Source of the DNA: Escherichia phage tiwna
Sequence record: NC_054896.1
Reading direction: 5' to 3' (one strand)
DNA length: 51,014 nt
The position numbers and the translations under genes are program-made. The notes under the pieces were generated by a model. It was not told the origin of the DNA. It searched no databases and saw only the letters and a program-made list of their open reading frames with translations. Shown piece by piece: positions 33,535-47,394 of the stretch (the first letter of the stretch is position 1; every line of letters starts with the position of its first letter).

Positions 33535-35532
33535 ATGATTCCAAATATCGAAAAACAAATATCAGCGTTAGGCGAGGCAGTAATAAAAAGCATCCAAGAG
33601 CGATTCACTGTTGGCAATATAGTGCCTTATCCTTATCAGTGCGTTGCGTATGCCGAGATCGCAAAGCGCATGAAAAACTATGAGCATCCTTTCTTCGTTA
33701 AGGCTTCTGTGTCGGCTGGCAAAACTTTGATGTTTGCGATGGTTGCTGCGCAATGCCGCAAAATGGGATTGAAAATGATGGTCCTTGCTCGCCAGGCTGA
33801 AATTGTTGATCAGGATTCGGAAGAGATCAGCAATCTTGGCGTGCCAAACTCAATCTATTGCGCCGGACTGAAAACAAAAAGCGCATACTTTCCGATCGTA
33901 GTCGGTTCTGAGGGCACTGTAGTAAACGGATTGTTTAAGTCGTTAGGTGATTATGTTCCGCACGTTATCGGTATTGATGAATGTCACCAGGTGGATTGGG
34001 AGGATCTCGCCGACGCGATAGAAAATAATGAATCTTACCAGCAGATGACCACTAAGAAGGATTTGCCTGTACTGATTGGAGAAGAACAGCAATTTGATTC
34101 CAATGGCGATCCAATGTTCGGAACAGGGCGCGCACAGTACACCGTAATAATCATGGAAATGATGCGCAGGTGTCGCGAGGCATACGGGCACGAATTGCGA
34201 ATATTCGGTATGACTGGATCTGAATTTCGCGGCGTGGTTCCAATACTGGTTGAAGATAAGAACAAAAAGGGATTCTGGCGTGAGCAGGTGACTAACATAG
34301 ACACAAACTACTTAATCAAATTCGGTTCGGTAGTGCCAACAAATTTCGGCGACGTAGGCGACCTGGGGTATGACCTTTCAGAGTTCGAAGCCAGTAGCGA
34401 GGATGGCGTTTCAGACTTTGACGCTAAAACATTGCGCAAGATGGAAGAAAAAATCCATCAAGACGCAACAATGACACAGAAAATCATGGCTAAAGTCCAT
34501 GAGATATGCAAAGACAGGAACGGAGTTTTAGTTACATGCGCAGGGGAAAGGCACTGCAAGGAGGCCGCCGCCGCACTGCCGCCAGGCGTTGAATACAGGA
34601 TCATAACTGGCAAGACTGGAGATAATCAGCGTAAAGAGTGGCTAAGGGAGGCATACGAGGGAAAAGTAAAATACATCTTCCAGGTACAGGCGCTTACCAC
34701 TGGCGTTAACGTTCCGTTTTGGGATACTTCGGTAATACTGAGAAAGATAGGATCTCTAACATTGCTTATCCAGCTTTTGGGGCGCGGTATGCGACTGCTT
34801 AAGCAATGGCACATTGAGCAGGGATTCAAGAAAAAAGACCATCTTGTATTGGATTTTGCCGGTACTATGGATGAGTTAGGGGATTTGTATTTCGATCCAA
34901 TCCTTGAGCAAGCGCAATTCCAAAAGAGATTTACAAACGGGAAAGAGCCTAAGACTTGTCCGATATGTGGAACGCTAAACAGCTTTTACGCTCGCCGATG
35001 TATGCACGTAGACGATAACGGGAAGAGATGCGAGCATTTTTGGACTTACAGAATTTGCGAGGACCAGGTAGATCCGAGAACGAAAAAGATAATCAAGCGC
35101 GGTTGCGGAACAAAAAACGACGTAGTGGCGAGAGTTTGCCGTTGTTGCGATATTTCTCTTGTCGATCCTAACGAGAAGTTAAGCGGCAAGCACTACACCA
35201 AAAACGATTGGTGCAACGTTAAATCTTTCCGCGTTGATATGACGAAAAACCAGAAAGGAATTGTTTTTTGCTATGAGCTTGAGGCCAACGGCGACACGTT
35301 CAAGGCATACGAAAGATTTTTCCCTGAGTCAGAAAGCAACATTTGCCGGACGATATGGAGAAAAATAGCATTGCAGTACATACCGGATCGCAAGATTGCT
35401 GGTATGGTGGCGAGCTATAGAAATGCGCGTAAAATAATGTCATACGCTCATCACATCATGCCTCCTGTACGCGTAACGCATCGCAAAAACGGCAAAGGTG
35501 AGGATAACATTGCAAAACGGGAGTTTGTTTAA
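33535..35532 (+). CDS. superfamily 2 DNA helicase
   Basis: Walker A SAGKTLM, DExH box GIDECHQ, C-terminal Cys-rich zinc-ribbon-like segments; 665 aa. Confidence 0.7.
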   Translation: MIPNIEKQISALGEAVIKSIQERFTVGNIVPYPYQCVAYAEIAKRMKNYEHPFFVKASVSAGKTLMFAMVAAQCRKMGLKMMVLARQAEIVDQDSEEISNLGVPNSIYCAGLKTKSAYFPIVVGSEGTVVNGLFKSLGDYVPHVIGIDECHQVDWEDLADAIENNESYQQMTTKKDLPVLIGEEQQFDSNGDPMFGTGRAQYTVIIMEMMRRCREAYGHELRIFGMTGSEFRGVVPILVEDKNKKGFWREQVTNIDTNYLIKFGSVVPTNFGDVGDLGYDLSEFEASSEDGVSDFDAKTLRKMEEKIHQDATMTQKIMAKVHEICKDRNGVLVTCAGERHCKEAAAALPPGVEYRIITGKTGDNQRKEWLREAYEGKVKYIFQVQALTTGVNVPFWDTSVILRKIGSLTLLIQLLGRGMRLLKQWHIEQGFKKKDHLVLDFAGTMDELGDLYFDPILEQAQFQKRFTNGKEPKTCPICGTLNSFYARRCMHVDDNGKRCEHFWTYRICEDQVDPRTKKIIKRGCGTKNDVVARVCRCCDISLVDPNEKLSGKHYTKNDWCNVKSFRVDMTKNQKGIVFCYELEANGDTFKAYERFFPESESNICRTIWRKIALQYIPDRKIAGMVASYRNARKIMSYAHHIMPPVRVTHRKNGKGEDNIAKREFV

Positions 35533-35951
35533 TGGCTATAACTGATAAAGGCGATTATCTTGAGTTTTACGAAAGGGATCCAACCGACACGAGAAGGGAA
35601 GTTAATCACCAGATAGATAGTTTTCAGTGGTTGACTTATGCTCATCCTTATTTGCTGGCGTGGCATACGGTAAACGAGAATGAGAAGTCTAAAGCAACGG
35701 CGATGATTGATCAGCAGTCCGGCTTGGTTAAGGGAGTAAGCGATTTCATCATCCTGATTGGTTTAAACGGAAAATACCCCTTTGCAGCGATTGAGATCAA
35801 ACGAGTGAATAAATCAGGCAAGGGGAAAGCATCACCAGTCAGCGATGAACAAAAGGCTTTTTTGCGTCGCGTTCGCAGCTTAGGAGGATTCGCTGCGGTA
35901 GCCTACGGATTCAATCAGTTTAAGTTGGCTATTGAATACATGCTTAAATAG
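35532..35951 (+). CDS. VRR-NUC domain nuclease
   Basis: Motifs AIEIKR (E.K) and QKAFLRRVRSLGG typical of VRR-NUC; ATG overlaps the helicase stop. Confidence 0.5.
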   Translation: MAITDKGDYLEFYERDPTDTRREVNHQIDSFQWLTYAHPYLLAWHTVNENEKSKATAMIDQQSGLVKGVSDFIILIGLNGKYPFAAIEIKRVNKSGKGKASPVSDEQKAFLRRVRSLGGFAAVAYGFNQFKLAIEYMLK

Positions 35952-35966: not shown

Positions 35967-36031
35967 CTGGCGCGATGGATTGCGCCATAATTCAATAACG
36001 CGAGATGGCTTTTAATAGCGGAGAAATGAAA

Positions 36032-36757
36032 ATGGCTAAAGATATTTTAGATAAAGACACCCATGACGCATTCGTTAGCTTTGAGCAGTTGGAGAGAGAA
36101 ACGTTTATAGGGAATGCCCTTGCAACTGGAGGCCATTACCAGGCAGTAAAGCCAAATCAATATTATAAGGTAAGTGGCAACCGATACGCTGGAAGCACCA
36201 CGCCGGACGTTGTGCGCGATATGTGGAGTACGCCTCAAGAGATCGTGGAGTGGATGGAATCAGAATTTGGTGAATACGATCTCGACGCGGCAGCAAGCCA
36301 GGAAAACGCAGTTTGCGAGAAGTTCTATAGCAAGGAGACAAACTGCTTAAAGCGTTGGTGGGGTAGCAACAAGCACGTATGGCTTAACCCGCCGTACAGC
36401 AACCCAACTCCATTTATCAAGAAAGCAATTGAGCAAATGGAGCACAACAACCAAATTGATGTTTTGTTGCCAGCAGACAACTCTACAGCATGGTTTTATG
36501 AGGCGCAGAAAAACGCGGCTGAAATCATCTGGATCACTGGTGAGGTTTACGAAGAGGGTGGAGTAGAATACTCCCGCACCGGAAGAATCGCCTTTGTGTC
36601 TGGATTGACTGGCGAGCCTGTGCAGGGCAACAACAAGGGAAGCGTGATTTTTGTCATGCGCAAACTTAAAGAAGGCGAGGAGCAGAAAACGCGATACGTT
36701 AAGATCAGCGATATTTGCCCTTCTGTAACCGAACGTCGCGCACGCAAACGGAGCTAA
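36032..36757 (+). CDS. dam: DNA N6-adenine methyltransferase (phage Dam-like)
   Basis: DLDAAAS and NPPY motifs; GGAG 9 nt before ATG 36032 (alternative ATG at 36005). Confidence 0.65.
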   Translation: MAKDILDKDTHDAFVSFEQLERETFIGNALATGGHYQAVKPNQYYKVSGNRYAGSTTPDVVRDMWSTPQEIVEWMESEFGEYDLDAAASQENAVCEKFYSKETNCLKRWWGSNKHVWLNPPYSNPTPFIKKAIEQMEHNNQIDVLLPADNSTAWFYEAQKNAAEIIWITGEVYEEGGVEYSRTGRIAFVSGLTGEPVQGNNKGSVIFVMRKLKEGEEQKTRYVKISDICPSVTERRARKRS

Positions 36758-36761
36758 CACG

Positions 36762-37019
36762 ATGGAAAAAGAGAGAAGCGTTTATTTAAATGAAACTGGC
36801 GAGTGGTTGTTATTTCGCGCTATGGTGTGCGATGCACTTGATAAAAACCCTAACGTGAAAAAGATGATTGATTGCGATCCGTGGGAATTTTCAAGCGCAT
36901 TAGATATGAGCTTTGAGGAGACAAGAAAACTCCCGCTTGAAAAATGGCACGAACAAATCAGAAATGACATGCAAGAGTTTGTCGATTCGTGGAATTTTCA
37001 GCACGGAATGATCCACTAA
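36762..37019 (+). CDS. hypothetical protein (85 aa)
   Basis: RBS ggag before ATG. Confidence 0.45.
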   Translation: MEKERSVYLNETGEWLLFRAMVCDALDKNPNVKKMIDCDPWEFSSALDMSFEETRKLPLEKWHEQIRNDMQEFVDSWNFQHGMIH

Positions 37020-37065
37020 TAGCACTTTTTGTTAAAACGCCCGGCCTAGTGTCGGGCATAATTAT
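37020..37065 (+). promoter_or_regulatory. conserved box plus hairpin plus -10 CATAAT; left arm of the ~46-bp inverted repeat
   Basis: TAGCACTTTTTGTTAAAAcgcccggcctagtgtcgggCATAAT, nearly identical to the reverse complement of 40234-40279. Confidence 0.55.
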
Positions 37066-37094
37066 TTCAACGAAGCAAGCATGAGGAAATAAAA

Positions 37095-37274
37095 ATGGTG
37101 GTATTCGATAAACGCGCTTTTAATCTTGCCCAAGAAGTAGCAAAAGGTTCAGTGGATGGCGGTTCAAAGGAAGGATTCCAGTTTGATTGGGAGATCGCAA
37201 TGTTTTTACTGAAAGTTGCATACGGTCACGCACCAATTGAACAAGCGGAGGCATATTATAAGCATGAAGGTTGA
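37095..37274 (+). CDS. small hypothetical protein (59 aa)
   Basis: RBS gaggaaat before ATG; below the ORF-track cutoff. Confidence 0.35.
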   Translation: MVVFDKRAFNLAQEVAKGSVDGGSKEGFQFDWEIAMFLLKVAYGHAPIEQAEAYYKHEG

Positions 37275-37506
37275 GCAAGGAAGAGATGCGGTATGGAATC
37301 ACGCTAAAAAATGCGGTATTGCCGACGATATAAAGAAGATCGCGCAATACTTTGATATTGCAGATGTGAGCATAATTAGCGGCGACAAGATGACTTTCCT
37401 CAAGGAAAGGCCGCGAAAAATGGTAAGAGTTCCAGCAGTTCCAACAAAAATTGATTTCAAAGAGGCAATGGCTAAAATCCGAGAGCCTCGCAAATATTAT
37501 AAATGA
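37264..37506 (+). CDS. hypothetical protein (80 aa)
   Basis: Internal ATG of track ORF 37216; overlaps the upstream small ORF. Confidence 0.4.
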   Translation: MKVEQGRDAVWNHAKKCGIADDIKKIAQYFDIADVSIISGDKMTFLKERPRKMVRVPAVPTKIDFKEAMAKIREPRKYYK

Positions 37507-37600
37507 GGATAGTTATCATGTGGCGCTTGTTTGTTCTACCGTTACCCGTTATCATCGCTGTTACAGTTATGTACCATATAGTGATGAGATAGGTAGCAGA

Positions 37601-38716
37601 ATGAAAAATGTAAAAATTACAGATGAGCAATTCAAGATCGAACGGGCGGCAGGTAAGACATATAAACAGATCGCTCAAGAGTACGGAATGAATGTGAGAA
37701 GCGTCGAGCGTCGCGCGGCGCGTCTTGCAAAGCAAGGACAGTTATCGACCATCGGAGCGCCTGGTTTTGGTGTTCATGGTGAGTCAGTAATGACTGACAA
37801 AGAAGGAAATATAATCCTCAAGTGGACCAAAACCAGCAAGGATAAAGAGCAATTAGAGGCATTGATGCGCGCAGCAATGGAGGCATTTAGCGAGGAAGTG
37901 CCGCGATTAGATCCAGTTCCATTGCAGGAGCGTAACTATAATGAAACGCTTTCATTGTATCCGATCTTTGACATGCACTTAGGAGCTATGGCCCATAAGC
38001 ACGAATGCGGCGAAAATTGGGATACTGCGACGGCAGAGCGCGTTATGAATAACTTTATCGACTATGCTTTGATGTGCGCACCGGACAGCGAAAAGGCTGT
38101 TATCCTGATTGGTGGCGATATGCTGCATAGCGACGGCCTGGAGGCGGTGACACCTGCAAGCGGTCACGTACTTGATCAAGATAGCCGATATGCAAAATTG
38201 GTTTACGTTGCAATCCGTGCAATGCGTCGCGCAATTAATAAAATGCTGTTAAAGCATAAACATGTTGAGGTCCAGATCGTAGAGGGGAATCACGACCAAT
38301 CAGGAATGATTTGGCTACGCGCAGCAATGGCGGCAGCATATGAGAACGAGCCGCGCGTTTACGTTGATGTTTCTCCTCGCGTTGTTCACCACACGCAATA
38401 CGGAAAAACTTTCCTTGCGTACCATCACGGGCACACAGTGCGTAAACCGGAGACTTTGCTAATGATGTGCGCGTCAGATTGGCGGGAGGACTTCGGAAAC
38501 TCAAAAACGATGTATGCGCACGTAGGGCACTGGCATCACCAGACCGTGACAGAAACGTCGCTTGGCATCGTGGAGGTGCATAGCACCCTGGCGGCAAAAG
38601 ACGCATACGCCGCGCGAGGTGGCTGGAGATCTCGACGCCGTGCAGCGGTTATCATTTACGACAAAGAGCATGGAGAAGTCGGGCGATTTGTTCACTATCC
38701 AGAAATGATGAATTGA
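37601..38716 (+). CDS. calcineurin-like metallophosphoesterase with N-terminal HTH-like segment
   Basis: Motifs DMH, GGDMLH, GNHD, HHGH and GHWHH in canonical order; N-terminal KTYKQIAQEYGMNVRSVERRAARL; start could instead be upstream at 37451. Confidence 0.5.
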   Translation: MKNVKITDEQFKIERAAGKTYKQIAQEYGMNVRSVERRAARLAKQGQLSTIGAPGFGVHGESVMTDKEGNIILKWTKTSKDKEQLEALMRAAMEAFSEEVPRLDPVPLQERNYNETLSLYPIFDMHLGAMAHKHECGENWDTATAERVMNNFIDYALMCAPDSEKAVILIGGDMLHSDGLEAVTPASGHVLDQDSRYAKLVYVAIRAMRRAINKMLLKHKHVEVQIVEGNHDQSGMIWLRAAMAAAYENEPRVYVDVSPRVVHHTQYGKTFLAYHHGHTVRKPETLLMMCASDWREDFGNSKTMYAHVGHWHHQTVTETSLGIVEVHSTLAAKDAYAARGGWRSRRRAAVIIYDKEHGEVGRFVHYPEMMN

Positions 38717-38762
38717 TGAATTTTTATTTAAATCAATGACAAATTAAATCAAAAACTTGCAA

Positions 38763-38791
38763 AGGGGCGGCGTTTGTCGCCTCTTTTTTTT
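38763..38791 (+). terminator. rho-independent terminator
   Basis: Imperfect hairpin ggggcggcg...cgcctc followed by T8. Confidence 0.5.
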
Positions 38792-38861
38792 GTTTAATTC
38801 TTTATCATGTGCGTTTATCATGCGGTCAATATATTGACTTTAATTAATATGGAGAATAAAA

Positions 38862-39077
38862 ATGAAAGATTTTATTAACGCAGCTACCGCCGGATCTGGC
38901 GGTTCATCTATCGCAAGCGCCGCTACAGGGCAGTTAACCATTGCTATTGCCAGCTTTGTTTTAATGGCTGCATTCGGTGCATGGGGCGCTTACCTTCGCT
39001 GGCGTGATAGTAAAAAATTCCACGAGGCGATCGAAAAAGGTGATATTCAAAAAGCTATTGAGATCAGGGGCAAGTAA
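38862..39077 (+). CDS. holin (possibly pinholin-type)
   Basis: 71 aa with a Gly/Ala/Ser-rich first hydrophobic segment, a second TM and charged C-terminus; immediately upstream of the endolysin. Confidence 0.6.
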
Positions 39078-39568
39078 TGAGCATAAAGAACAGGGTAGCG
39101 GCTGCGGCCTTTGGCGTTGCGGTTGCCTTGACTTCTCCACTTCTTGAAGAGATCGAAGGGGTAAGATACAAGCCATACAAAGATATTGCGGGGGTATGGA
39201 CGGTTTGCGCAGGAATCACCGGACCCGATGTTATCCTGGGGAAAACGTACACTAAAAAAGAGTGTGATGCTTTGTTGGCTAAGCATATCCAGGTTGCTAA
39301 AAAGGAAGTTGACAAGCAAGTTAAGGTTGACATTCCTGATAGTATGCGTGCAGCAATGTACTCATTCACTTACAATGCAGGTGTGGGAGCTTTCAGAAAT
39401 TCAACAATGCTGAAACTCATCAATCAGGGGAAATTAAAAGATGCTTGCGATCAGCTTTATCGTTGGACGTATTACCATAACCCCAAAACAGGAAAGCGCG
39501 AGAAGTCTAAAGGCTTACTTAACAGGCGCAAGGTCGAACACAAATATTGCACAATGGATCTGAAATGA
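39077..39568 (+). CDS. SAR endolysin (lysozyme, E-x8-D-x5-T type)
   Basis: N-terminal weakly hydrophobic [12 protein letters not shown] signal-anchor-release-like segment followed by a catalytic E..D..T spacing ([16 protein letters not shown]). Confidence 0.7.
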
Positions 39569-39960
39569 TGAAGAAATTTTTACTTACACCAATCGCAATG
39601 GCGGTGATCTTGTCTGGATGTTCAAGCGTTACGCCACTGACCGGATTAATCGGCAGTAAGCCGGAAATCACAGCACAGGCTGGCGCGGAGAACGTGAAGC
39701 AGACAGTTGGCATTACAGAAAAGCATGACGCCAGCACAAAACAGAAAACCACAATAAAGGAATCTGCGGTTGACAAGGTTGACACGTCCAGCAAGAAGGA
39801 TTTCACAACATCAACCATTCAGGCCAATACCATCAAGGCAGACAAAATTCAGGTCGTGCAGGGTAATAACGGCAGATGGTACGATCCAATAATCATATGC
39901 GTGGTTGTGTTAATTGTGCTGATTTGTCTTTACTGGAGAGAAAAGAAAAAGGAGGCTTAA
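39565..39960 (+). CDS. unimolecular spanin (lipoprotein with C-terminal TMD)
   Basis: Lipobox ILSGC at the N-terminus and C-terminal [18 protein letters not shown], as in the T1-type u-spanin; the track start is TTG, real ATG at 39565. Confidence 0.6.
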
Positions 39961-39976
39961 TGCCTCCTTTATTTTT
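39945..39976. terminator. bidirectional terminator
   Basis: Hairpin aggaggcttaatgcctcct with flanking A- and T-runs, overlapping the spanin stop. Confidence 0.55.
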
Positions 39977-40199
39977 ATGCGTCGGGCCACATATGAGTTT
40001 CGTTTGTTGGCTTGTTCGATTCTTCGTACTGCCTTACTTCAATGCTGCAAGTGTCGCCGTACAGTTCTGCAATCTTGCGCTCATTTTCAACAGCCGATTG
40101 CTCACTCCATCCAAAATCCCTGTCATAAATTGTCGGGATTTCAGCAGAAGATCCGTTGTCATGATTATATACGCGAACTACTAAAAACTTGCTGGACAT
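39975..40199 (-). CDS. hypothetical protein (74 aa)
   Basis: First gene downstream of the minus-strand promoter module at 40236-40279. Confidence 0.45.
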   Translation of the reverse strand: MSSKFLVVRVYNHDNGSSAEIPTIYDRDFGWSEQSAVENERKIAELYGDTCSIEVRQYEESNKPTNETHMWPDA

Positions 40200-40233
40200 A
40201 ATTTTACCTTTTGGTTGTTTCGTTTCGATGAAA

Positions 40234-40279
40234 CAAATATACCCGACACTAGGCCGGGCGTTTTAACAAAAAATGCTAT
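40234..40279 (-). promoter_or_regulatory. conserved box plus hairpin plus -10; right arm of the ~46-bp inverted repeat
   Basis: Reverse complement reads ATAGCATTTTTTGTTAAAAcgcccggcctagtgtcgggTATATT. Confidence 0.55.
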
Positions 40280-40470
40280 TCCATACGCTTTACCGTAACC
40301 AGTAATACACCATCATCATTGCATAAAACATGTTCAGTGGTGCTAAAAGCGCGCATATCTGAATAAAGTAGCGTAAGTAAAGCATGAATAAAATCCTCAT
40401 GTGATATTGAATTTACGGCGCAGTGCTTCAAGATCTTGTCTATTAGCTTTTGCCTGGAACAATTCATCAT
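40276..40470 (-). CDS. hypothetical protein (64 aa)
   Basis: GGGGAG RBS; stop codon is the TAG of the box; overlaps the upstream gene by 74 nt out of frame. Confidence 0.4.
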   Translation of the reverse strand: MMNCSRQKLIDKILKHCAVNSISHEDFIHALLTLLYSDMRAFSTTEHVLCNDDGVLLVTVKRME

Positions 40471-40792
40471 CGCCCATCTCCCCTATTCTCGCCATATCCC
40501 TGATCCAGTCGTTGCGCATACCATCCAGGCTATACAATTCGAATCCGAAAGGCCGCTTTGACGATCCTTTGGACCAGTATTTACCGCAGACCCCATCTAT
40601 ATAGCCAGCCGTCATCATTCTTGCGCAAAATTCCTTAGATGCAAGGCTGGCGAACATTCGCGGCGTAAGTCCGGCGGCCCGTGCGAGCCGCTCACATTCT
40701 CTATGCTGATAGATAAATTTGGCTATGTGCTGCCTGTTAAACCAGTCGTATGACTCACACCATTTATACAGATCAAGCAAAAACATAATCAT
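40397..40792 (-). CDS. hypothetical protein (131 aa)
   Basis: ATGA coupling to the upstream ATPase gene. Confidence 0.45.
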   Translation of the reverse strand: MIMFLLDLYKWCESYDWFNRQHIAKFIYQHRECERLARAAGLTPRMFASLASKEFCARMMTAGYIDGVCGKYWSKGSSKRPFGFELYSLDGMRNDWIRDMARIGEMGDDELFQAKANRQDLEALRRKFNIT

Positions 40793-42369
40793 CCCAGCAG
40801 TATTGGATTGACAAAAATAACACCATTAATAACACAAACATAATTTCTTTCTTCCAGCATTGGCAGCAAGTGCCCTTCTATCCTCTTCATTACGCCAGCT
40901 TGACCAACGAAAGGTTTTACCTTTCTCGCTGATTCGTACAGGGCGCGAATATTCAGAATCCCTTTATTAGCCTTGCCGTGTCTAGTGATCAATTCAATCA
41001 ATTTGCCCATTTCAGCATCATCACCAGCATAACCAGAAGCATTGGCGGCGCTAATGTATGTTTTGCTCAATTCCTGAAACATGATCAGCGCCTCTTGCAT
41101 TGTTTCCACGTCGATCTCTTTCGACTTCTGCTGGTATCCAGCAGGATTAAACCAGTTGCGGATAACATGCAGGACGGAAGCAAGCCTGATCACCTGTTTA
41201 TCCATTTTACCCAGCGCACCGCGTAACATTGTATGAGAATACTTTCCGCCGTCTGCAAGATGCGGTTCCATATCCTGGCGAGCAATGTTGAGCACTCGCA
41301 TAGCTGAACGGCTTATTTTCAGCGATATATTTGATTCGCTCATGATGTTATGCACCAATTGATAATATTGGGCCTTCAATTCAGGATCCACCGCCTCATA
41401 GGTAGAATCACCATTTTCATCAATGAATGAGCGACGGCCTAAGAATGATTCCTCACGGACCAACAAAAAGCGCTCACTCACACCGATACCGCGCGATCCA
41501 GCGTCCATGATTCCGCTTATCGTTTCATCCTGGGCTATAACGCTCATACATCCAAGCGCGCGAAAACTCATGTTATTGTCAGCATTAGCACGGGCGATTG
41601 ATACGTGACCATTATCCCACGCCTTAAGCACTAGCTCGCTGTTAGTCTTCCTTTCGCTATTGGCATAGGTCAAGCCTAACAGGCTGTTAATACTTGTTGC
41701 TTCGTCAGATATTACGGCAAAGTTACCTTGCTTGTTGTTGATTTTCGCCAAGCCTTCTGGAGTTGTATCTGAAACAGGGAAAGTTATATCACACATTTTT
41801 TCCAGCTTCTCCTCCAGATCCTCTTTTTCCTGGTATAGAGATTCCATATCAGCGCCTGATCTTTCGCTTTTCATCTCCTTTGCAAGACCTGCCAACTTTG
41901 CCTGTATTTTCTTTCTTTCCTTGCGGCGTTGCTCGTTGATCTTCTCAACTTCCGCAATCATCGGAGCAATAGCCATGCTGTTGATCGCAGATTTACCAGT
42001 TGACGGCGGCTGGCTTGTAACGACGTAAAGCGCAGTCGGCTGATCGGTCCCGTGATAGTCAACCGTAAAGCGTCCAAGCATGGCGGCAGAAATGCAGCCG
42101 ATAAAGTGCATGTAAGCCGATGATTCAGGGAATTGAACGGATCGCGCAATGCTGCGTGATAACTTTCCGACAACATCAATATCATTACCAAGAGAAATTA
42201 CGGGGTAGCGATCGTGACCGCTATTTACATCCTTCACGTCGCCCCAAAAGCTGGACGACTGGCGATAGCCGTTAGCCTGAATTGATACGCGAACTGGTGA
42301 AAGGTTCTGGCTTTCAGCCATAGCGATTATTTGCTGTGGAGTTAATTTGTTCGTTTCTAATGAAAACAT
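40789..42369 (-). CDS. P-loop NTPase of unknown function (526 aa)
   Basis: Walker A SQPPSTGKSAI and Walker B-like FAVISDEA; GGAG RBS; first gene after the promoter box at 42423. Confidence 0.5.
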   Translation of the reverse strand: MFSLETNKLTPQQIIAMAESQNLSPVRVSIQANGYRQSSSFWGDVKDVNSGHDRYPVISLGNDIDVVGKLSRSIARSVQFPESSAYMHFIGCISAAMLGRFTVDYHGTDQPTALYVVTSQPPSTGKSAINSMAIAPMIAEVEKINEQRRKERKKIQAKLAGLAKEMKSERSGADMESLYQEKEDLEEKLEKMCDITFPVSDTTPEGLAKINNKQGNFAVISDEATSINSLLGLTYANSERKTNSELVLKAWDNGHVSIARANADNNMSFRALGCMSVIAQDETISGIMDAGSRGIGVSERFLLVREESFLGRRSFIDENGDSTYEAVDPELKAQYYQLVHNIMSESNISLKISRSAMRVLNIARQDMEPHLADGGKYSHTMLRGALGKMDKQVIRLASVLHVIRNWFNPAGYQQKSKEIDVETMQEALIMFQELSKTYISAANASGYAGDDAEMGKLIELITRHGKANKGILNIRALYESARKVKPFVGQAGVMKRIEGHLLPMLEERNYVCVINGVIFVNPILLG

Positions 42370-42422
42370 TCGTTAGCTTCTCCTTTGTGGGCCGTAAATT
42401 TTAACGGCCCAATACTACCCCG

Positions 42423-42441
42423 TTTTGTCAAAAAGTGCTAT
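42423..42441 (-). promoter_or_regulatory. conserved box (variant TTGACAAAA), minus orientation
   Basis: TAGCACTTTTTGACAAAA on the minus strand; TAG is the stop of gene 42438..42659. Confidence 0.5.
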
Positions 42442-42659
42442 TTGATCCGCTCTATTGCAACCAGAAGTCGATCAGGCTGGCGGTCGCTGTAGCATTCTCC
42501 TGTAATCCCATCCTTAAACGTAAAGTAAAGCGCCTTATGATATGAAAAACCAATCAGCCAACCTACCGCCGTTTTTTTGATGGGCCTGACTATATCGCCA
42601 GGCTTGAAAGTCTTTGTGGTAGAATGCGTTACTTTGTAACGGTTTTCACTGTTTATCAC
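42438..42659 (-). CDS. hypothetical protein (73 aa)
   Basis: ATGA coupling with the upstream gene. Confidence 0.45.
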   Translation of the reverse strand: MINSENRYKVTHSTTKTFKPGDIVRPIKKTAVGWLIGFSYHKALYFTFKDGITGECYSDRQPDRLLVAIERIK

Positions 42660-43042
42660 AGATATTTACCCTCAAAAAGATAACAGCCGCCAGCAGAGAA
42701 TCCGACCTCTTCACGGTACAGGTTCCAGCGGTCGCCGCACTCATCAAAAACATAACCCGCAACGCTTCCAAGCGGTCGCCCTTTCTCGATCTGGTATCGC
42801 TTGCCCTGCTTAAAGTGCTTTTTGCACGGCATGTTATGATCTACAAACGTGCAAAGAACGGTTTTTGTGTTAATGGCGCGGTAATCATCTCGGTTTGCTG
42901 GAAGCCAGCGGCTACCCTTAACAAGCGTCTTAACCTGGAACTCTTCCACCTCGATCACATCATCACTTCCTGCAATCTTCTGATAAACCGTTTTAAAACG
43001 GCCTTTCATCAATACGTTGGTTTCATTACAGATAACATTCAT
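42656..43042 (-). CDS. hypothetical protein (128 aa)
   Basis: GGAG RBS; downstream of the box at 43097. Confidence 0.45.
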   Translation of the reverse strand: MNVICNETNVLMKGRFKTVYQKIAGSDDVIEVEEFQVKTLVKGSRWLPANRDDYRAINTKTVLCTFVDHNMPCKKHFKQGKRYQIEKGRPLGSVAGYVFDECGDRWNLYREEVGFSAGGCYLFEGKYL

Positions 43043-43096
43043 GATCAGATCTCCTTTGTTTGTTCGATGTGATTATGCCAGGTTTTTACACCTGGC

Positions 43097-43115
43097 TTTT
43101 AACAAAAAGTGCTAT
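43097..43115 (-). promoter_or_regulatory. conserved box, minus orientation, with -10 at 43062-43067
   Basis: TAGCACTTTTTGTTAAAA, hairpin gccaggtgtaaaaacctggc, then CATAAT. Confidence 0.5.
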
Positions 43116-43822
43116 TTTGAGTTTGACTCAAAGACGGCGCGAGCAAAGCCGCGCGGAGTGAGGGAGCGGATCATCTTTGTGCGCGATGACTTACCGCCAG
43201 TTTTGGCCCAGCCTGGATTATCTTTGTCTTCCTCTTTCGGCAGGATTAAAGCGCGCGGAGGAATAACAAAGCCGTTGCCAGTCCAGAGGCACGTTTTCTT
43301 AAAATAGCGATCCCGTGCCGGAATAATATCAGGGAAGTCGGGATGTTTATCATCTTCCGGCAGATAGCCAGCGTAATCGCACGGATGGAACGTATAATCA
43401 GGCTTTCGCCATAACGTTGACAACTTGCCAACCGGATTTTCGATCATGTAAGGAACACCGAAATAATCAGCTATATCAGCCGCGATTCTGCAAGTGTCGG
43501 CGGCCTCATCCTGGAACGATGGATTCTCAAGGCGTTTTTTGGCCCAATGGCGAGATCCGCTATTTGCAAGGTCAGTGCATGGTGGGAAGGCCATAATAAA
43601 ATCAGGATTGCCCCACTCATTATTGATTGCCTTAACATAAAAAGCATCATCAATCCAGGCGTTAACGTATTCGATATTCTCATGCTGTATGCGCACTGAC
43701 TGGTAATCACCGTGATCGCCACCGTCAGCATTAAAGCAAATGCACTTATAGCCATTATCAGCCCAATCTTTAACGGCTTTACCAGATCCATCAAATAGGG
43801 AGAATATTAAACCTTTATACAT
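43112..43822 (-). CDS. small DNA C5-cytosine methyltransferase-like protein
   Basis: Motif I-like LFDGSG, motif IV-like FPPC, motif VI-like IENP in the expected order; GAGG RBS before ATG 43822. Confidence 0.4.
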   Translation of the reverse strand: MYKGLIFSLFDGSGKAVKDWADNGYKCICFNADGGDHGDYQSVRIQHENIEYVNAWIDDAFYVKAINNEWGNPDFIMAFPPCTDLANSGSRHWAKKRLENPSFQDEAADTCRIAADIADYFGVPYMIENPVGKLSTLWRKPDYTFHPCDYAGYLPEDDKHPDFPDIIPARDRYFKKTCLWTGNGFVIPPRALILPKEEDKDNPGWAKTGGKSSRTKMIRSLTPRGFARAVFESNSK

Positions 43823-43832
43823 CGTCATTACC

Positions 43833-44057
43833 TCAAAACGGAAAACAGCGCGGACAACTAGGATCGAAATCGCATCCACAATCATTAACAATCATATTGG
43901 GATCTGCAAATATTGCGCTTGATTCAAGATCCATATCCATATCACCTAAAGCCTCATCAAGAGTCTTAATTTTATATGCCACTTCAAGCGCCGCCTCTTT
44001 ATTTAGTCCGGCATCTTCTGCCATTTGAAGGCGCTCAAAAAAACCGTCCTGACTCAT
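43833..44057 (-). CDS. hypothetical protein with Cys-rich C-terminus (74 aa)
   Basis: C-terminal CGCDFDPSCPRC; acidic N-terminal half. Confidence 0.45.
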   Translation of the reverse strand: MSQDGFFERLQMAEDAGLNKEAALEVAYKIKTLDEALGDMDMDLESSAIFADPNMIVNDCGCDFDPSCPRCFPF

Positions 44058-46520: not shown

Positions 46521-46774
46521 TTTTTCTTCTCCTGCAATAAGCAAACATCATTGATAAAATCAGCACGGCCCTTAATGTTGCTGATGTGGAACGTCTTTTC
46601 AGCGTACAGGCCATCACCTTCAATAACGATCATTACGCGAGTCGGTTTATTCACGGGCGCACACGAAAAGAGTGGTCGCGCCGGAAGAAATTTAGTAGCC
46701 ACATCCAGGTTAGCCCTGGCGGCCCTGCAAAATGCCTCCGCCAGATCCAAATCATTTTCGGTAATCACCGCCAT
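46508..46774 (-). CDS. hypothetical protein (88 aa)
   Basis: ATG overlaps the upstream stop. Confidence 0.45.
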   Translation of the reverse strand: MAVITENDLDLAEAFCRAARANLDVATKFLPARPLFSCAPVNKPTRVMIVIEGDGLYAEKTFHISNIKGRADFINDVCLLQEKKKCWM

Positions 46775-47046
46775 TACTTCTTGATCTCCTCACTGATAAA
46801 TTTCAGCACCTGACGTAAGAAAACCTCGTTGTTGATAGTCGCTGGCAATTCTTCTTTCACTTCTTGCGGCAGATAGATATTGCCGTGCCAGGTCAAGCAA
46901 TCGTAGTTGATACGATAAGAGCAAAGCCACTCGCAATCGTTATCTGCTTCCCAAATGCAGAGTTGCAGAACATCGCCAAAATCCTCAACAGTCAGATCCA
47001 GACCGTGACGCTTAGCGAAGTTGAAAGTGGTTTTGCTGATGTTCAT
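46774..47046 (-). CDS. hypothetical protein (90 aa); first gene of the leftward early cluster
   Basis: GGAG RBS; directly downstream of the promoter box at 47106. Confidence 0.5.
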   Translation of the reverse strand: MNISKTTFNFAKRHGLDLTVEDFGDVLQLCIWEADNDCEWLCSYRINYDCLTWHGNIYLPQEVKEELPATINNEVFLRQVLKFISEEIKK

Positions 47047-47105: not shown

Positions 47106-47124
47106 TTTTAACAAAAAGTGCTAT
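47106..47124 (-). promoter_or_regulatory. conserved box, minus orientation, with -10 at 47081-47086
   Basis: TAGCACTTTTTGTTAAAA then 19 bp then TACATT. Confidence 0.5.
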
Positions 47125-47394
47125 TTGACGGTTAGCGCCAGGATTGTGATCGAAATAATCAAAAGTAATCATTCGTAATCAAATCACGTCAAAATGATGA
47201 TTGCCTTTGCAAATTTGATGAGAAAAGCAATCACGTTTAATCATTGGTTGCAGGGGAGATAGTGAAACCTTCCCCTCTCGCCTCAATTTTCCGCCTGGCT
47301 GTCAGTGGTTGTTATGTTCCGTTCCCGCCTGTTCTTTTGTTGACCTTCCGCAAAATACGATAACAAAAAATAACAAACAATACCTATATAATAC

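Follow-up and report, generated by a model that had tools for sequence, protein, structure and literature searches.

Two solitary DNA methyltransferases of different classes, a Dam-type N6-adenine enzyme and a compact C5-like enzyme, in the T1-like Escherichia phage tiwna

Introduction

The two DNA methyltransferase genes described here lie within positions 36032–43822 of the 51,014-nucleotide genome of Escherichia phage tiwna (sequence record NC_054896.1), the whole of which is called the window below. One encodes a Dam-type N6-adenine enzyme and the other a compact protein of the C5-cytosine type, and both have close relatives that have been described. Phage T1 Dam (ST20) is a classical enzyme, and its GATC specificity is said to have been established by Auer and Schweiger in 1984 and by Schneider-Scherzer et al. 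in 1990. For the compact enzyme, a close relative has already been characterised as a trigger of retron Ec86 that forms 5-methylcytosine (5mC).

This relative comes from phage K42, a KarlJaspers-like member of the Drexlerviridae, from which mutants escaping retron Ec86 were selected (10.1101/2023.08.16.553469; the published version is Wang et al., Cell Rep 2024;43:114857, as cited in PMC12640716). All four escapers (4/4) were mutated in a 711-bp dcm gene or in the region upstream of it, two of them through alteration of the base 9 bp before the dcm start; deletion and frameshift dcm mutants still formed plaques, and dcm expression was toxic only in the presence of the retron (10.1101/2023.08.16.553469). 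When the multicopy single-stranded DNA (msDNA) was analysed by LC-MS (liquid chromatography–mass spectrometry) against a 5mC standard, its 5mC content was high with the wild-type K42 enzyme and low with the C82A/E128A/K175A/K176A mutant or the empty vector, and alteration of the CCTGG sequence of the msDNA abolished the Ec86 defence (10.1101/2023.08.16.553469).

The window belongs to a T1-like virulent coliphage of the Drexlerviridae (Tempevirinae, genus Warwickvirus). Between 36005 and 43891 (7.9 kb) it shares 99.0% identity with Escherichia phages vB_Eco_Sip and FritzSarasin (Bas04) and 96–99% identity with many other Tempevirinae/Warwickvirus phages. In the records of these relatives the two genes bear names of the kind 'Dam-like N6-adenine methyltransferase' and 'Dcm-like C5 cytosine methyltransferase'. 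With such annotation in dozens of near-identical Drexlerviridae genomes, the pair is not new.

An earlier note, made from the letters of this DNA alone, had claimed two orphan methyltransferases of different classes with no cognate restriction endonuclease apparent, and had read them as dual self-methylation against restriction. The observation is confirmed: the different classes and the solitary status of both enzymes are borne out by gene, motif and neighbour checks, all five of the motifs that had been quoted (5/5) are present in the translations at the positions given, and the flanking open reading frames (ORFs) are without restriction-enzyme domains. The explanation proposed here, to which a probability of about 0.8 is assigned, is that this T1-like phage carries two solitary methyltransferases, a Dam enzyme acting at GATC and a compact enzyme forming 5mC, that both are used against restriction, and that the second carries a cost in the presence of a retron. 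As a discovery the observation is of low value, correct but ordinary.

Identity of the two genes

The Dam-type protein matches PF05869 with 207.9 bits (E = 1.1e-61; cut-off 28.1) and TIGR01712, 'phage N-6-adenine-methyltransferase', with 181 bits (E = 1.2e-53; cut-off 97.05). It also matches the PADLOC 'orphan methyltransferase' model PDLC03721 at 2.7e-104 and is 100% identical to gp28 of phage tonijn. With T1 Dam it shares 66% identity over 218 residues and identical DLDAAAS and NPPY motifs, the first of which we take, from knowledge of the family, to bind S-adenosylmethionine (AdoMet); the N-terminal ∼23 residues, in contrast, are unrelated. The T1 gene sits after helicase and VRR-NUC genes, as in the window. 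The window protein is an orthologue of T1 Dam and, because of the 66% identity, would most likely form N6-methyladenine (m6A) at GATC. Unlike the window, T1 carries the Dam gene only, without the compact cytosine enzyme.

The start of the Dam gene was placed at 36032 because of the GGAG sequence that precedes it and the annotation of the same 726-bp form in the FritzSarasin and tonijn records. An alternative in-frame ATG at 36005, which would give a form of 250 residues, is without a usable Shine–Dalgarno sequence.

For the compact gene, the mechanical ORF starts from a TTG at 43891 (259 residues) and overlaps the upstream gene; the RefSeq record of tonijn and the K42 paper use the 711-bp form instead. 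In the KarlJaspers sequence, the −9 position that was altered in two of the K42 escapers lies, on the sense strand, inside the GAGG Shine–Dalgarno sequence. If this link is drawn correctly, it supports the reading frame of 236 residues independently.

The Dcm protein of KarlJaspers (Bas06) aligns with the window protein without gaps at 89% identity, rising to 100% over residues 121–191. The two differ by 25 substitutions, nearly all of which fall in residues 23–75 and 112–116, between the conserved motifs. KarlJaspers also has the same gene neighbourhood and the same GAGG Shine–Dalgarno sequence. The K42 gene is likewise of 711 bp and encodes 236 residues, and the residues assigned to its active site, C82, E128, K175 and K176, all stand at the same positions in the window protein; KarlJaspers and K42 differ in belonging to Hanrivervirus, whereas the window belongs to Warwickvirus. 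From the literature on these close relatives, the window enzyme is taken to form 5mC. By analogy with what is known of the relative, it would also be a liability in hosts that carry retron Ec86/Eco1, a point that the earlier note does not have.

Family, motifs and predicted structure of the compact enzyme

The compact protein has no match in Pfam or NCBIfam, PF00145 being absent at E ≤ 1, and matches phrog_757, 'DNA methyltransferase', at 3.6e-85; this match and those of the Dam protein are much too strong to be accidental. When the protein and a profile of 69 diverse family members were searched against PDB sequences, nothing significant was obtained (DNMT3B, E = 0.58; DNMT2, E = 0.45; HaeIII, E = 0.78). 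The weak DNMT3B match spans motifs I–IV, and a PDB search with the C-terminal 73 residues returned a spurious match only. PF00145 is the only Pfam family that was matched by more than one member (six of the 69; best E = 0.0039), in each case under the gathering score.

The compact family is very common in phages yet invisible to Pfam and NCBIfam, and annotation pipelines therefore miss it or name its members inconsistently. It comprises 3,035 clusters at 90% identity (word-indexed search) and 1,191 clusters at 50% identity (exhaustive search, E ≤ 1e-3), and it occurs in 1,526 of 50,697 phage records. A search with E. coli Dcm gave 557 such records at E ≤ 1e-10, a rough comparison since the thresholds differ. 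Members are ∼210–260 residues long throughout, and the small size is therefore a family trait and not a truncation. Across the 69 diverse members C82, P130, P147, Y173 and P188 are invariant, and P80, G89, E128, N129, F145, D171, K175, T177, W180, R219 and P223 are nearly so.

Alignment to canonical C5 enzymes was performed with hhalign, using eight sequences (E. coli Dcm and seven phage Dcm homologues). The family profile aligned over 117 columns with E = 3.7e-5 and a probability of 71%, covering motifs I–VI only and pairing FDGSG with FAGIGG, FPPCTDLANSG with GFPCQxFSxAG and IENP with LENV. Against E. coli Dcm alone the probability was 0.5%, with PPC/PCQ and ENP/ENV still paired. The C-terminal half of the family gave no hhalign alignment to canonical C5 enzymes and was compared by eye. 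In this comparison, which lies outside the reach of hhalign, Y173-x-K175-x-T177 and CLWTG are located where the canonical Q-x-R-x-R and VFIIG would be expected; if this placement is right, both arginines of motif VIII are replaced. Further on, IRSLTPRGFAR resembles the canonical motif IX sequence IRKLTPRECWR, also by eye. Motif X (GN-S-V) was not seen in the protein, which stops 8 residues past the motif IX-like stretch, at 'ESNSK'; this terminus could, but need not, be what is left of motif X.

Compared with the canonical enzymes (PF00145; E. coli Dcm, M.HhaI and M.HaeIII), the compact enzyme is alike in having motifs I, IV and VI collinear and alignable and in having a motif IX-like RSLTPR. 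It differs in being ∼100–240 residues shorter, in having ENP for ENV and in an extra conserved coil of 30 residues that precedes motif VIII.

A model of the compact enzyme was predicted by AlphaFold2 from an alignment of 50 sequences, with a mean predicted local distance difference test (pLDDT) score of 89.8 and a predicted template-modelling (pTM) score of 0.89. The model has the C5-methyltransferase fold. Foldseek returned DNMT3A/B catalytic domains (E = 4e-8 to 1e-6), to which the predicted fold is closest; generic Rossmann-fold proteins reached scores of 10–11, yet with only 122–163 residues aligned. The mammalian DNMT3A and DNMT3B share only 12–18% identity with the compact enzyme and are eukaryotic, multi-domain, oligomeric and CpG-specific, and the resemblance of the model to them probably reflects a common small recognition domain rather than close kinship.

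From the motif VIII-like strand (residues 177–182) to the motif IX-like helix (residues 213–220) there are ∼36 residues, compared with ∼110 in E. coli Dcm. Within the C-terminal half of the model, confidence is lowest at residues 183–212 (pLDDT 65–86 in 10-residue blocks). Residues 146–176 are mostly coil in the model and have no canonical counterpart by hhalign; they may have a role in DNA recognition. The earlier note had supposed that so short a protein might have either a minimal target-recognition domain or a different activity. The spacing given above bears out the first. The second is unlikely in view of the 5mC formed by the K42 enzyme according to LC-MS, the loss of this signal in the active-site mutant and the 89% identity to the KarlJaspers protein. 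The interest that remains lies in how a small, diverged C5 enzyme recognises its target, and in whether that target is the Dcm site.

Two further observations concern the family. Residue 31, at the end of strand 2 and presumably at the acidic, ribose-binding position of motif II, is an Asn that is invariant in the enterobacterial-phage clade, whereas in the wider family an Asp stands there almost without exception. A natural fusion protein of 563 residues (P0233) consists of an N-terminal compact C5-like part, matched by residues 1–193 of the query, and a D12-class N6-adenine DNA methyltransferase at residues 303–546 (PF02086 at 2.5e-48).

Restriction-site statistics

Sites were counted over the whole genome (1–51014) and are given as the ratio of observed number to zero-order expectation. 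GATC is present at 311 sites (1.61 times expectation) and CCWGG at 123 (1.78 times), the third highest ratio of 32 pentamer quasi-palindromes. The two most depleted of the 32 are both relatives of CCWGG, namely CCSGG, with five sites (0.09 times), and GGWCC, with 14 (0.20 times). Palindromic hexamers are absent in 22 of 64 cases and have a median ratio of 0.18, compared with 2.4% absent and a median of 0.89 for non-palindromic hexamers. There are two EcoRI sites and none for EcoRV or EcoKI. Palindrome avoidance is thus extreme in this genome; it is weaker in T1, in which 11 of 64 palindromic hexamers are absent.

The genome thus shows a clean division of labour, with palindromes avoided for most sites and GATC and CCWGG left abundant. 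Dual methylation as a means of anti-restriction is the conventional reading and fits these statistics: methylation would serve for GATC and CCWGG, and avoidance for the remaining restriction sites.

Proposed explanation and alternatives

Gene identity, motifs, predicted fold, solitary status and site statistics are shown here. On the explanation favoured here, Dam would methylate N6 of the adenine in GATC with AdoMet as the donor. The compact enzyme has kept the catalytic half of a C5 enzyme, that is, the AdoMet-binding motif I, the Pro-Cys nucleophile of motif IV and the Glu of motif VI, which in C5 enzymes protonates N3 of cytosine. With a reduced motif VIII, a recognition segment of ∼36 residues and a motif IX-like helix as its last element, it would form 5mC, the target probably being CCWGG. 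Inside the cell the two enzymes would methylate phage DNA as it replicates, and the progeny DNA would carry m6A and 5mC regardless of the Dam/Dcm status or capacity of the host. Restriction enzymes specific for GATC and CCWGG would then be blocked, with wholesale palindrome avoidance dealing with the other restriction sites. The cost would be methylation of the msDNA stem-loop of retron Ec86/Eco1, by which this abortive-infection system would be set off. It is the GATC and CCWGG specificity of these two particular proteins, and the anti-restriction benefit, that we infer.

Several points weigh against this explanation. The usual hosts carry a Dam and a Dcm of their own. In T1, which is without the cytosine enzyme, CCWGG shows no depletion (1.17 times expectation), although avoidance had been expected there if the enzyme were needed; the T1 comparison does not discriminate, and the exemption of CCWGG could come from host Dcm, or from selection by EcoRII-type enzymes being weak. 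At the sequence level, the similarity of the window protein to canonical C5 enzymes is below the thresholds of Pfam and of the PDB search, and the presence of neither motif VIII nor motif X could be demonstrated. In the BASEL study, no simple relation of methyltransferase genes to restriction resistance was seen among the Drexlerviridae. FritzSarasin is among the few restriction-resistant Drexlerviridae in that study, and palindrome avoidance rather than methylation may explain its resistance. The site of the compact enzyme was assumed from that of E. coli Dcm, with msDNA mutagenesis as the only support for it, and msDNA from dcm+ MG1655 carrying the empty vector contained only low 5mC (10.1101/2023.08.16.553469). 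Host Dcm and the phage enzyme must therefore be unlike in some respect, be it access, the form of the substrate or the site.

A doubtful idea is that the compact family might read DNA through the coil of residues 146–176 and not through a canonical target-recognition domain, with a substrate or site that differs from that of host Dcm. The substrate might then be hairpin or partly single-stranded DNA, or the target a different cytosine. This would explain why 5mC in msDNA is low in dcm+ empty-vector cells and high with the phage enzyme.

In phage P1, Dam methylation controls pac cleavage and headful packaging. Roles of the methyltransferases on the phage's own DNA (replication marking, pac cleavage/headful packaging, gene timing or escape from mismatch repair) would sit well with the BASEL study, in which resistance to restriction was not linked to methyltransferase genes, with the 1.6-fold enrichment of GATC over base composition and with the location of the Dam gene inside a replication/recombination block (helicase, VRR-NUC nuclease, exonuclease), the order of which is conserved in T1. 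Such roles are nevertheless an improbable account of the pair: the compact enzyme is dispensable, as T1 is without it and the K42 deletion and frameshift mutants form plaques, and its patchy occurrence as a single-gene insertion looks like that of an accessory counter-defence gene. Nor did a cluster of GATC or CCWGG sites come to light at a packaging site, although no search aimed at one was made.

It is a good deal less probable still that the compact protein uses the C5-methyltransferase fold for another reaction, such as transfer of a carboxymethyl group from carboxy-S-adenosylmethionine, or modification of RNA or single-stranded DNA. The lack of a Pfam or NCBIfam match, the Y-x-K-x-T in place of Q-x-R-x-R at motif VIII and the missing motif X would all be in keeping with this, as would the in vivo substrate of the relative, an msDNA stem-loop that is apparently left largely unmethylated by host Dcm. 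However, the methyl-transfer motifs I, IV and VI are intact and conserved, and LC-MS found 5mC on msDNA with the K42 enzyme that was lost with the active-site mutant.

Gene neighbourhood and solitary status

The coordinates of both methyltransferase genes, of their motifs and of the neighbouring genes are given in Table 1. Neither Pfam nor PADLOC finds a restriction-enzyme domain in the ORFs that flank the two genes (59–139 residues), and only the VRR-NUC protein gave a match above threshold in either; the 128-residue downstream neighbour of the compact gene had no match in Pfam or PADLOC. Neither the annotation of the near-identical tonijn genome nor those of the closest annotated genomes include a restriction enzyme.

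The VRR-NUC gene overlaps the helicase gene by one base (35532), and the order helicase–VRR-NUC–Dam is kept in T1, the VRR-NUC homologue of which is 69% identical. The compact gene has no counterpart in T1 (best tblastn E = 0.89), and ST7 and ST6, the homologues of the genes on either side of it, are adjacent there; what was inserted is therefore the compact gene by itself, without a partner.

Two sets of candidate partners were considered and rejected. As a cognate endonuclease, the VRR-NUC protein was rejected on the grounds that its gene abuts the helicase gene in an order conserved in T1 and that it has no PADLOC match. The 128-residue and 74-residue neighbours were rejected as partners of the compact enzyme, both being present in T1, which is without the enzyme.

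That one of the enzymes is the modification half of a phage-borne restriction–modification system with an unrecognised endonuclease (the VRR-NUC or the 128-residue protein) is scarcely credible: a gene of the PD-(D/E)xK-type VRR-NUC class does end 80 bp upstream of Dam, and the ORFs flanking the compact gene are without known function, but the first shares a base with the helicase gene, the others have homologues in T1, Dam fits the orphan-methyltransferase model of PADLOC, and, with 311 GATC sites in the genome, an enzyme that cuts GATC would call for full protection in lytic growth.

Table 1. Coordinates of the two methyltransferase genes, their sequence features and their neighbours in the window
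Feature	Position	Strand	Details
Phage Dam-type N6-adenine DNA methyltransferase gene	36032..36757	+	241 residues, 726 bp; PF05869, TIGR01712
GGAG Shine–Dalgarno sequence, 8 nt before ATG 36032	36020..36023	+	Read from sequence
DLDAAAS motif, residues 83–89	36278..36298	+	Translation; identical in T1 Dam
NPPY catalytic motif IV, residues 119–122	36386..36397	+	Translation; identical in T1 Dam
Compact C5-cytosine DNA methyltransferase gene ('Dcm-like')	43112..43822	-	236 residues, 711 bp, ATG 43822
GAGG Shine–Dalgarno sequence, 8 nt before ATG 43822; overlaps stop codon of upstream gene	43831..43834	-	Sequence
Motif I, FDGSG (F-x-G-x-G, AdoMet binding), residues 10–14	43781..43795	-	Invariant in 50 close homologues
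Motif IV, FPPC, residues 79–82, catalytic Cys82	43577..43588	-	C82 invariant in 69 diverse members
Motif VI, IENP, residues 127–130, Glu128	43433..43444	-	Canonical form ENV
Family-specific conserved stretch, residues 146–176, HPCDYAGYLPEDDKHPDFPDIIPARDRYFKK, ending in degenerate motif VIII	43295..43387	-	Family conservation
Short segment at position of canonical target-recognition domain, residues 183–212	43187..43276	-	Predicted model
Motif IX-like C-terminus, IRSLTPRGFARAV, compared with canonical IRKLTPRECWRLQ	43115..43186	-	Comparison by eye; R219 and P223 nearly invariant
VRR-NUC nuclease gene directly upstream of Dam	35532..35951	+	PF08774 at 4.8e-10
Downstream neighbour of compact gene, 128 residues, T1 ST7 homologue, insertion edge	42656..43042	-	tblastn 60% identity, T1 46624–46848; phrog_2684, function unassigned
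Upstream neighbour of compact gene, 74 residues, T1 ST6 homologue, other insertion edge	43833..44057	-	tblastn 51% identity, T1 47124–47327

Both types of enzyme are also found together in a lambdoid prophage of E. coli GCA_053566455.1 (L006 4494–6747), within a nin-type region that encodes NinG, RusA and an antiterminator. There a PF05869 Dam of 179 residues lies two genes from a compact Dcm-like gene (248 residues, 60% identity to the window protein), and the pairing therefore recurs in an unrelated phage lineage.

Other features of the region

The ORF at 37451–38716 (+) is a 'DNA repair exonuclease/phosphoesterase' (phrog_704 at 1e-148) with a weak N-terminal helix-turn-helix that resembles sigma-70 region 4 (residues 67–91). 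Its start varies between records, giving 372 residues in FritzSarasin and 398 in tonijn.

A scan for promoters and terminators around both methyltransferase genes gave no more signals than were found in shuffled sequence. An 18-nt GC-rich hairpin, GCCCGGCCTAGTGTCGGG, is present in two copies of opposite orientation, at 37039–37056 (+) and 40242–40259 (-). Both copies of GCCCGGCCTAGTGTCGGG scored as terminator-like, the first following a small ORF at 36762–37019 and the second following the ORF at 40276–40470. At 39948–39970, where the lysis genes of the plus strand and the early genes of the minus strand converge, lies a hairpin, AAAGGAGGC...GCCTCCTTT, that is terminator-like in both directions and has T-runs on either strand.

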